Part shown: piece by piece, positions 2,551 to 59,068 of the stretch
Layout of the letters: each line of letters starts with the position of its first letter
Position numbering within the stretch: position 1 is the stretch's first letter
Assembly: GCA_048939625.1 (NCBI GenBank)
Contig: JBHLPH010000003.1
Location: 72,353 to 136,352, forward strand
DNA: 64,000 nt
Direction: 5' to 3'
Source of the DNA: Promethearchaeota archaeon
GTDB lineage: Archaea; Asgardarchaeota; Hermodarchaeia; Hermodarchaeales; Hermodarchaeaceae
Translations under genes and position numbers: made by a program
Notes under the pieces: model-generated
Told to the model about the DNA's origin: nothing
The model's input: only the letters and a program-made list of their open reading frames with translations
The model's database searches: none

Positions 2551-2710
2551 TACTGCAAGTCTCTCTGCCAATCTTGATAAGATTCCAAGTTTGCCACTGG
2601 CAAACGAAAAAGAGAGGACCGTATAAACTGCGGTTTCTATCCTTCAAGGCTGAGAGGAAACCTTTTTGTGGAAGCACTCGTTTCAACCTTTCTCCGTGCC
2701 GGGGCACCGT

Positions 2711-2865
2711 GCCGGGATTATGCTGGTAATTCCTTACCGGCTCCCGAAGGTGTAAACTGGTATTTGCCCAGGCGCAATGGTAGCATTGAAGCCTGTGGAA
2801 TCCCATTTGTCCAGGTGGGATGCAGAAAGCTTTAGGTCGGGGTTCGAATCCCTGTCCCGGCACCA
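2711..2865 (+). tRNA. trnH: tRNA-His(GUG) with three introns: 2719-2748 (8/9), 2756-2777 (15/16), 2799-2827 (37/38); CCA encoded
   Basis: Spliced sequence GCCGGGA TG GTGT AATGGTA GCAT T GAAGC CTGTGGA GCTTT AGGT CGGGG TTCGAAT CCCTG TCCCGGC A CCA is a 71-nt canonical cloverleaf. Each intron has a 4-bp central helix flanked by 3-nt bulges. Adjacent to hisS. Confidence 0.9.
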
Positions 2866-2919
2866 TTTTTCAATCCAAAGGAGGATAATAGATAGAAATT
2901 CGAATACGAGTTGAAAAAC

Positions 2920-4404
2920 ATGAAACGTGGAAAAGAGCTAGCCGTAGGTGGGTTTCGCGACTACTACCCAGAGCTTTACCAGAAAATCGATGTAATATTG
3001 CGCGCCTTCCGTGAAATCCCTAAGCTCTTCGGATATATCGAATACGAATGCCCAACGGTAGAACCTCTGGAATTATACGAATTGAAATCGGGACCTTCCC
3101 TCGTTGAAGAAACTTTCAAAGTAACTGATCGGAAGAAGCGACGACTTGTATTACGTCCAGAAACCACACCGTCGTTAGCGAGGATGCTTGCAGTTCAACA
3201 ACAAAATTATCCACGTCCCATCCGATGGTTTTCCATTTCACGTGTATTTCGAGACGAAACTCTACAACGAGGACGCGTCAAGGAATTTTGGCAATTAAAC
3301 GTTGACATACTGGGTACAGAGGACGTCTCCGCTGATGCAGAAGTGATTAATGTTCTTGCAGCCATCATTCTGAGCTTAAACTTCACACCTGAAGACTTTG
3401 TTATTCGAATTAATGATCGCCGGCTCATCCAGAGCTTCATCGAATCCCTAGGTCTGCCAAATTATGTTGAGATTATCCGAGTGTTAGATCGTCGTGAAAA
3501 ACTCTTACAAGAAACTCTCATTACTAAACTTACAAAGGCGGGTACCCCACCAAAAAAAGCGGAAGAAATCGCACTCAAACTCCGTCATTTCTTTGTTGGT
3601 AAGCAGAAAGATATACCCAAACTTCCTCGCACAAAGCAAATAGAAGAATTGAAAAAACAGCTTCCACGTCTTCAACGCGACGCACTAATGAAAACCTTAT
3701 CTGATGCAGGTGTCCCTCAAGATGCTGCCCAACAACTCACAGATTTCTCAGCTATTCGAGGAACCCCAAAGGAGTTTCTTCAAAGAATGAAAGAGGTCAA
3801 ACTAGATGAAGCTACAAAGAAAGCCTTAGAACCCCTTAGACAGCTAGCAGAACAGTTCGAAGATTTAGGATTAACGGAAGTCTGCGAATTCGATGCCGGA
3901 ATTGCCCGGGGCCTTGATTACTATACAGGAATCGTCTTTGAAGCTTGGGATCGAAGTAGTGAATTACCTCGTGCAATTGCAGGAGGAGGTCGTTATGATG
4001 ACCTTGTTGGCATTTTTGAGGGACAGCGCTTGCCAGGTACTGGATTTGGTTTTGGTGAGACTGTTATCATGGAGCTTGCTGAGGAAATGGGCATACTCTC
4101 ACCACCTCCTCCACCAGCAGAAGTTTATCTCGCTCCTGTCTCCAAAAAGCAACTAAGCGTTTGTCGAGAAATTGCCACACAGCTTCGAGCAGCAGGAATC
4201 CGAACCATTTTCAATGGTTTCTCATGGTCCTTGTCTAAGCGTCTCGATGATGCCAGTAAAAGACAGGTACCACTCGCCGCAATTGTCGGACCGCGCGAGC
4301 TTGAGCAAAAATCAGTAAATGTCCGAAATATGAAAAGCGGGAAAGAGAAAATTGTGAAAATAAGTGCCCTTGCAGACTATGTTAAAAGTACTCTGGATTC
4401 CTAA
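2920..4404 (+). CDS. hisS: Histidine--tRNA ligase with expanded insertion domain
   Basis: GFRDY, LRPETT, motif 2 FRDETLQRGRVKEFWQ, ARGLDYYTG, GGGRYDDL, C-terminal anticodon-binding domain. Confidence 0.95.
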   Translation: MKRGKELAVGGFRDYYPELYQKIDVILRAFREIPKLFGYIEYECPTVEPLELYELKSGPSLVEETFKVTDRKKRRLVLRPETTPSLARMLAVQQQNYPRPIRWFSISRVFRDETLQRGRVKEFWQLNVDILGTEDVSADAEVINVLAAIILSLNFTPEDFVIRINDRRLIQSFIESLGLPNYVEIIRVLDRREKLLQETLITKLTKAGTPPKKAEEIALKLRHFFVGKQKDIPKLPRTKQIEELKKQLPRLQRDALMKTLSDAGVPQDAAQQLTDFSAIRGTPKEFLQRMKEVKLDEATKKALEPLRQLAEQFEDLGLTEVCEFDAGIARGLDYYTGIVFEAWDRSSELPRAIAGGGRYDDLVGIFEGQRLPGTGFGFGETVIMELAEEMGILSPPPPPAEVYLAPVSKKQLSVCREIATQLRAAGIRTIFNGFSWSLSKRLDDASKRQVPLAAIVGPRELEQKSVNVRNMKSGKEKIVKISALADYVKSTLDS

Positions 4405-58956: not shown

Positions 58957-59068
58957 GCCGGGATAGCCAAGTGGTTACGGCGCGGGCCTTGAGAGATGCC
59001 TTTAAGTATCATCCAAGGTAGCCTGTGACTTTTGGGTCGCAAGGGTTCGAATCCCTTTCCCGGCGCCA
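58957..59068 (+). tRNA. trnS: tRNA-Ser(UGA) with canonical 37/38 intron (58994-59019), long variable arm, G73, CCA encoded
   Basis: GCCGGGA...CGGGC CT TGA G^intron^A GCCTG...GGTTCGAATCC...TCCCGGC G CCA. Strict BHB: CTTG/CAAG helix with AGA and GTA bulges. Confidence 0.95.

Follow-up and report, generated by a model that had tools for sequence, protein, structure and literature searches.

The tRNA-His(GUG) gene and the adjacent gene for histidyl-tRNA synthetase (HisRS; hisS) in the window (the whole stretch of DNA analysed, 64,000 nucleotides) appear to encode a histidine identity pair that is independent of G-1, a reading to which a probability of about 0.72 is assigned on the basis of comparative sequence analysis. 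Recognition within the pair is probably governed by a rewired rule rather than by that of eukaryotes: the HisRS would no longer accommodate or need a nucleotide at position -1 and would select tRNA-His mainly via the GUG anticodon, with A73 and backbone contacts of an enlarged insertion domain perhaps adding to this selection. Of the three options raised by an initial annotation of the window (a eukaryote-type Thg1 activity, a retained U-1 and a G-1-independent HisRS), the last is backed by a filled G-1 pocket, a remodelled motif-2 loop and the covariation of the enzyme with A73 across families.

G-1 on tRNA-His is among the most nearly universal tRNA identity marks, and the known exceptions, with a G-1-less tRNA-His and a co-evolved HisRS, are one alphaproteobacterial clade (PMC3064791) and a few protists (PMC3561963, PMC4338351). 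The state common to Hermod- and Heimdall-type Asgard archaea, taken together with a HisRS whose pocket is filled, therefore suggests that the G-1 rule was abandoned independently in a third domain. Nothing relevant was found in the literature on Asgard archaea with Thg1, tRNA-His or HisRS, and no paper was found describing a G-1-less tRNA-His with a co-evolved HisRS in the Archaea. The pair offers a natural tRNA/synthetase system for tests of co-evolution and, possibly, an orthogonal pair for engineering.

A tRNA-His gene interrupted by three introns

The tRNA-His(GUG) gene occupies window positions 2711–2865 on the forward strand, with A73 at 2862, an encoded CCA at 2863–2865 and a T at position -1 (2710); the initial annotation, which had reported A73 and the lack of an encoded G-1, was right in both bases and coordinates. 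The acceptor stem is formed by GCCGGGA (5' strand, 2711–2717) and TCCCGGC (3' strand, 2855–2861), and with a G at 2709 ahead of the T at 2710, G-2/U-1 could pair with C74/A73. No tRNA was called at 2711–2865 by ARAGORN on the unspliced window or by Rfam at the gathering score because three introns interrupt the gene, a warning to annotators that tRNA-His genes of this kind slip past standard tRNA finders. The introns were located by a search for bulge-helix-bulge (BHB) geometry combined with a reading of the anticodon region, and each lies in a BHB motif whose central helix is 4 bp long and whose bulges are 3 nt each (Table 1). Their removal in silico yielded a 74-nt product that ARAGORN identified as tRNA-His(GTG) with A73, CCA, G1:C72, a 7-nt D loop and a 4-nt variable loop. 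The T run that follows the CCA is likely, from its sequence, to act as an archaeal terminator. No second tRNA-His turned up in the metagenome-assembled genome (MAG) when ARAGORN was run with introns permitted, nor when acceptor and T-arm frames were searched for GUG loops by a custom scan.

Table 1. Features of the tRNA-His and hisS region, in window coordinates
Feature	Position	Strand	Remarks
Leader near-copy of acceptor 5' strand (-2 to +7), then CACC	2696..2708	+	GTGCCGGGG; read directly
tRNA-His exon 1, positions 1–8	2711..2718	+	GCCGGGAU; invariant in relatives
Intron 1, 30 nt, positions 8/9, BHB motif	2719..2748	+	central helix CGGG/CCCG; bulges AU/U and AA/G (slash, predicted cut site)
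Exon 2: G9, D-stem GUGU, A14 A15	2749..2755	+	invariant block; joined to exon 1 in sister-genus genes
Intron 2, 22 nt, positions 15/16, BHB motif	2756..2777	+	central helix GUGU/GCGC, inner helix CUGG/CCAG; bulges AA/A and AA/U
Exon 3: remaining D arm, anticodon stem 5' strand, loop with anticodon GTG (2795–2797)	2778..2798	+	
Intron 3, 29 nt, canonical positions 37/38, strict BHB motif	2799..2827	+	central helix CUGU/GCAG, inner helix AUCCCA/UGGGAU; bulges GG/A and AA/A
Exon 4: A38, anticodon stem 3' strand, 4-nt variable loop, T arm, acceptor 3' strand, A73, CCA	2828..2865	+	
T5 run directly 3' of CCA, putative terminator	2866..2870	+	TTTTT kept in relatives
hisS, HisRS of the Hermod/Heimdall clade ('type H'), 494 aa	2920..4404	+	PF13393, PF03129; ATG at 2920
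Lys75-Lys76 in place of the Gly-Gly G-1 pocket	3133..3138	+	from alignment; pocket role from PMC4357726
Motif-2 loop	3253..3294	+	DETLQRGRVKEFWQ; GRYRE replaced by GRVKE; Gln matching E. coli Q118 kept
56-aa Lys/Arg-rich insertion, residues 211–266, in the insertion domain	3541..3708	+	clade-specific

The neighbouring hisS genes place the organism in the Hermodarchaeota, and one genome of the same genus is titled Candidatus Hermodarchaeum yapensis. The gene was compared with 16 relatives, consisting of 12 same-genus and four sister-genus assemblies or loci (L014–L017). A73, the encoded CCA, the T run and a base other than G at -1 occurred in all 16, position -1 being U in 15, A in one (L013) and G in none. 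Since A73, CCA and the non-G at -1 are identical throughout these relatives, assembly error and chance are excluded, including the misreading of a C73 that the initial annotation had considered. The alignment of the 12 same-genus loci spans the whole gene, with invariant exons (exon 4 is unchanged in all 12), variable introns and compensatory changes in the intron hairpins. Intron 2 is present in all 16 relatives and is the only intron in two sister-genus genes (L016, L017), while L014 combines it with the 37/38 intron and L015 with the 8/9 intron, such that intron 1 is absent from L014, L016 and L017 and intron 3 from L015–L017. In the sister genus, exon 1 abuts GGUGU directly, and the splice sites are therefore fixed.

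Two other parsings of the gene were rejected. A single D-loop intron with a D stem of AUGC/GCAU (2720–2723/2783–2786) was abandoned, as the AUGC is not conserved and no BHB fits, and this model is also contradicted by the sister-genus genes that join exon 1 straight to GGUGU. The upstream copy at 2698–2704 was rejected as the real exon 1 of the source genome because C8 would replace U8.

The window also contains a gene for tRNA-Ser(UGA), interrupted by a 29-nt intron, at positions 58957–59065 on the forward strand; its acceptor stem (GCCGGGA/UCCCGGC) is identical to that of tRNA-His. At the acceptor end the two tRNAs differ only in the G73 of tRNA-Ser(UGA), and the stem pairs therefore cannot specify histidine.

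Leader copy and precursor processing

The near-copy of the acceptor 5' strand in the leader, which includes G-2 and U-1, was present in all 13 genes with the 8/9 intron (the 12 same-genus loci and L015) and absent from the three genes without it. Unconstrained minimum free energy (MFE) folds of the 12 same-genus precursors all paired the leader copy, and not exon 1, with the 3' acceptor strand, and in the same folds nucleotides 3–7 of exon 1 paired with the intron. These predicted structures suggest that the leader copy may serve as a surrogate acceptor strand, holding the precursor together during formation of the BHB of the 8/9 intron.

The precursor would be spliced at 8/9, 15/16 and 37/38, and a cut by RNase P at +1 would give a mature tRNA-His starting at G1. 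This position of the cut is expected because many other U-1/A73 tRNAs of the genome need the same cut. Genes for an RNase P RNA of the archaeal type (179.6 bits) and for two splicing-endonuclease paralogues (tRNA_int_endo, PF01974) are present in the MAG; two such paralogues fit heteromeric enzymes, which cut introns at non-canonical positions. All 24 parsed tRNA genes of the MAG encode a 3' CCA. Among the tRNA genes of the MAG, GU is a recurrent dinucleotide just 5' of +1.

The adjacent histidyl-tRNA synthetase

The hisS gene starts 55 nt 3' of the CCA end of tRNA-His; its open reading frame was listed from a TTG at 2911, and the product counted from the ATG at 2920 is identical to a 494-aa database entry. 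Matches to this product in 151 Asgard genomes were bimodal, with full-length matches (36–46% identity, ~500 aa) confined to the families f1, f4, f13, f25 and f27 and distant, shorter HisRS in the remaining families. Outside the Hermodarchaeota, nearly all of the nearest database relatives carry the label Heimdallarchaeota or 'Asgard group', and two are labelled Thor or Bathyarchaeia. In a quick tree, which took in no alphaproteobacterial sequences, the type-H clade formed one side of a branch with an SH-aLRT of 95 and the enzyme of family f9 was its sister. Within the same quick tree, the Hermod HisRS nested among Heimdall-labelled sequences (support 89–91). Considering that tRNA-His and hisS are adjacent in the Hermodarchaeota, this nesting points to the possibility that the two genes may have passed together from one Asgard class to another.

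The structure of the Thermus HisRS-tRNA complex places the G-1 pocket at a conserved Gly-Gly dipeptide (PMC4357726). This site lies four residues ahead of the motif 1 LxLRPE, and in the enzyme from the window it reads DRKKRR. None of the 115 type-H clade homologues aligned there possesses Gly-Gly: the dipeptide is KK, KE, KD or KN in the Hermod sequences, EK, EE or DD in the Heimdallarchaeaceae-type sequences and SG, with one Gly retained, in a Heimdall subgroup. Most Asgard enzymes from families with G-1:C73, and most other standard enzymes examined, have D[KR]GG, and variants among the standard enzymes include DKGN (f6), DQGQ (f21), DKGG or DKSG (f18) and DPWS (f19 and f7).

The motif-2 loop is also remodelled, with Q[RK]GRV[KR]E in 116 of 116 homologues matching the motif-2 pattern and GRYRE in most standard enzymes. 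The 56-aa insertion was found in all 15 type-H sequences compared and in none of 17 others; it falls in the insertion domain, and in the Thermus complex this domain clamps the acceptor stem (PMC4357726). The insertion and the segment that follows it align to one and the same stretch of human HisRS, a hint of internal duplication, and this candidate was rejected when a direct comparison was not significant (E = 0.27). One same-genus hisS orthologue (L095; G003:C68) contains a single in-frame TAA, which could represent a sequencing error, a pseudogene or recoding.

Covariation of tRNA-His and HisRS

Spliced tRNA-His sequences from Hermod and DPANN archaea were used to build a covariance model, which found tRNA-His in many of the Asgard genomes on which it was run. 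The survey of N73 across Asgard tRNA-His that the initial annotation had proposed gave A73 without G-1 in five families, all with a remodelled HisRS, and G-1:C73 in seven, all with a standard HisRS, with no exception among the 12 families in which tRNA-His was recovered and scored. A73 without G-1 accompanied the type-H HisRS in f1, f4 (including two closed genomes), f13 and f25, plus two further MAGs titled Heimdallarchaeota. The combination of G-1:C73 and the standard HisRS was found in f5, f6, f9, f16, f19, f21 and f22, and G-1:C73 is the state of most Asgard families sampled. In the scans of the 151 genomes, tRNA-His was not recovered in 14 of 27 families, and those families are unscored. 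The covariance model R1 returned no tRNA-His in G019 (f2), G031 (f3), G024 (f7), G025 (f8), G123 (f27) or any f18 genome, and none was found adjoining hisS in G053, G056, G019 or G024.

Family f23 (G097; L277, L249) has a tRNA-His with A1:U72, A73 and U-1, located 1.1 kb upstream of a second remodelled HisRS in which motif 2 reads YDEPAPGRFRQF and an insertion replaces the Gly-Gly site. An A at position 1 is an unusual feature in tRNA-His of any kind.

C73 is the typical discriminator of archaeal tRNA-His (PMC3245924), and the initial annotation had asked whether A73 might be common outside the Asgard archaea. A sample of the DPANN phylum gave 28 parsed tRNA-His genes (three further genes were not parseable), with G-1 in 27, C73 in 26 and both in 25; the exceptions to C73 were one U73 and one A73, each with G-1. 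A73 without G-1 is thus not common in this non-Asgard sample, in agreement with the published account. At four further DPANN loci, in Woesearchaeota and Pacearchaeota MAGs (L050, L051, L053, L055), tRNA-His lies directly upstream of hisS with an encoded G-1 and a discriminator that is U73 at three loci and A73 at one, not C73. The HisRS motif-2 loop at these loci is without the usual Gln (FRDGPIKLGRYRE).

Alternative explanations

Eukaryotic tRNA-His genes show precisely this combination of A73 and no encoded G-1 (PMC3245924), and Thg1 homologues (PF04446) do exist in some families of Asgard archaea, with 14 positive genomes among 301 sampled from 30 families. Both points would suit a eukaryote-like route in which cleavage by RNase P at +1 is followed by the addition of a non-templated G-1 opposite A73, by an enzyme of the Thg1 type or an unrelated one, and the HisRS needs that G-1. 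This route is nevertheless improbable. The Asgard families with Thg1 are ones with a standard HisRS, and none of the 14 genomes belongs to a family with the type-H enzyme. Neither PF04446 nor the C-terminal Thg1 domain PF14413 was detected in any of the 19 genomes of the family (the source MAG and 18 others), with PF04446 detected in the control, Methanosarcina acetivorans, and PF04446 was likewise missing from the other families with type-H HisRS (0/29, 0/11, 0/3 and 0/11; ~54 Heimdall-type genomes). As the MAG is 87.6% complete, the absence is drawn from the 19-genome family and not from the MAG alone. Moreover, the characterised archaeal-type Thg1 requires C73 (PMC3245924), and the HisRS lacks the Gly-Gly pocket that would accommodate G-1. 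The suggestion of a eukaryote-type Thg1 activity is therefore not supported. The other suggestion, a retained U-1, supposes that pairing of U-1 with A73 (and of G-2 with C74) moves the RNase P cut in the way that G-1:C73 moves it in bacteria, so that the 5' phosphate of U-1 sits where that of G-1 would. U-1 and G-2 can indeed pair with A73 and C74 and are kept in 15 of the 16 Hermod loci, and U-1 is also found in f4, one f13 genome and f23. This explanation is very unlikely, however, given that nine of the 13 other A73 tRNAs of the genome have U-1 and six tRNAs share the GU leader, such that U-1 is not specific to tRNA-His. A-1 occurs in L013 and, with the same HisRS clade, in f25, the Heimdall S139 MAG and one f13 genome (loci L124/L192, L193 and L130 among these lineages); with U-1 common and A-1 in lineages with the same HisRS, there is no reason to expect RNase P to treat this precursor differently. 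Lys-Lys at the pocket also argues against the housing of an extra base.

That the gene is a pseudogene, a product of misassembly or part of a contaminating contig, and that a canonical tRNA-His lies in the unassembled 12% of the genome, is extremely improbable. In favour of this, the MAG has 6.3% contamination and is 87.6% complete, and the gene goes undetected by standard tRNA finders. Against this stand the invariant exons set among introns with compensatory changes over 16 independent assemblies, the position of the gene beside hisS on a 136-kb contig, the failure to find a second tRNA-His in the MAG and the A73/no-G-1 state shared by the related closed genomes (G042, G084). The G-1-independent pair has evidence of its own to contend with. 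The HisRS retains the Gln that matches E. coli Q118, the residue that reads C73, and this would be unexpected if the acceptor end were simply ignored. The single Gly kept in one Heimdall subgroup of the clade also counts against it. In addition, the HisRS of both Trypanosoma cruzi and T. brucei keep Gly-Gly, yet the T. brucei tRNA-His is without a post-transcriptionally added G-1 (PMC4338351), and the dipeptide is therefore an imperfect marker.

Comparison with known systems

The canonical archaeal and bacterial tRNA-His, with its encoded G-1:C73, shares the GUG anticodon and overall cloverleaf with the tRNA described here, which differs in its A73 and U-1 and in a HisRS without the pocket. 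The HisRS of Nanoarchaeum equitans (PMC10100707) is likewise an archaeal enzyme that tolerates A73, but there G-1 is still the major identity element and the organism's own tRNA-His has C73.

Eukaryotic cytoplasmic tRNA-His, to which G-1 is added by Thg1, also has A73 and no genome-encoded G-1. Unlike in eukaryotes, Thg1 was not found here and CCA is encoded, and the HisRS has KK at the pocket and LQRGRVKE with its Q in motif 2, compared to DQGG in the human enzyme and an Ala-Met-Thr motif-2 loop. The gene state matches the eukaryotic one and the mechanism, without Thg1 or a G-1 pocket, does not, and a eukaryote-like reading of the pair is not supported. The bearing on the origin of the eukaryotic histidine identity system that the initial annotation had claimed stands only insofar as A73 occurs in Heimdall-type lineages, and is otherwise weak: eukaryotic HisRS keeps Gly-Gly, and the type-H HisRS is less like the human enzyme (117 bits) than is the standard Asgard enzyme (206 bits; similarity scores, not phylogeny). 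A73 has been proposed to arise in early eukaryotes (PMC3245924). Its occurrence in archaea that published phylogenies place near the eukaryotic stem qualifies an early-eukaryote-only view. It is conceivable, though doubtful, that eukaryotic A73 was inherited from a Heimdall-type Asgard ancestor already without G-1:C73 and that Thg1 later re-imposed G-1, in which case A73 would predate eukaryogenesis.

Acanthamoeba castellanii and T. brucei (PMC3561963, PMC4338351) resemble the present case in having a tRNA-His without a post-transcriptionally added G-1, and T. brucei differs in its U73 and in a HisRS that keeps Gly-Gly. The Acanthamoeba HisRS has been used to complement a yeast thg1 deletion (PMC4338351). 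The trypanosomatid enzymes were the second and third best solved relatives of the type-H enzyme (202 and 192 bits), and against trypanosomatid HisRS the type-H enzyme scored 202 bits and the standard Asgard enzyme 181 (again similarity scores, not phylogeny). The f9 HisRS (L177, L178, L189), sister of type H, has a GRRRE motif-2 loop like that of Trypanosoma HisRS and scored 197 bits against the trypanosomatid and 111 against the human enzyme; the f9 tRNA-His is canonical, with G-1:C73.

Caulobacter crescentus and related Alphaproteobacteria (PMC3064791, PMC4357726) share the lack of G-1, A73, the lack of Thg1 and a co-varying HisRS. They also share charged residues at the site of the Gly-Gly pocket, which are two aspartates in the G-1-less Caulobacter enzyme (PMC4357726), Lys-Lys here and Asp-Asp in some f4 relatives, and in both systems histidine identity is expected to shift to the anticodon. 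In contrast to the alphaproteobacterial tRNA, with G1:U72 and a 9-nt D loop containing U20a (PMC3064791), the tRNA described here has G1:C72, a 7-nt D loop without U20a and, in its gene, three introns. The HisRS differs in retaining the motif-2 Gln and in carrying its extra segment in the insertion domain and not in the anticodon-binding domain, and it belongs to another domain of life, within a clade nested among Asgard enzymes. The best reading of these likenesses and differences is that the Hermod pair is analogous to the Caulobacter pair and probably of independent origin.
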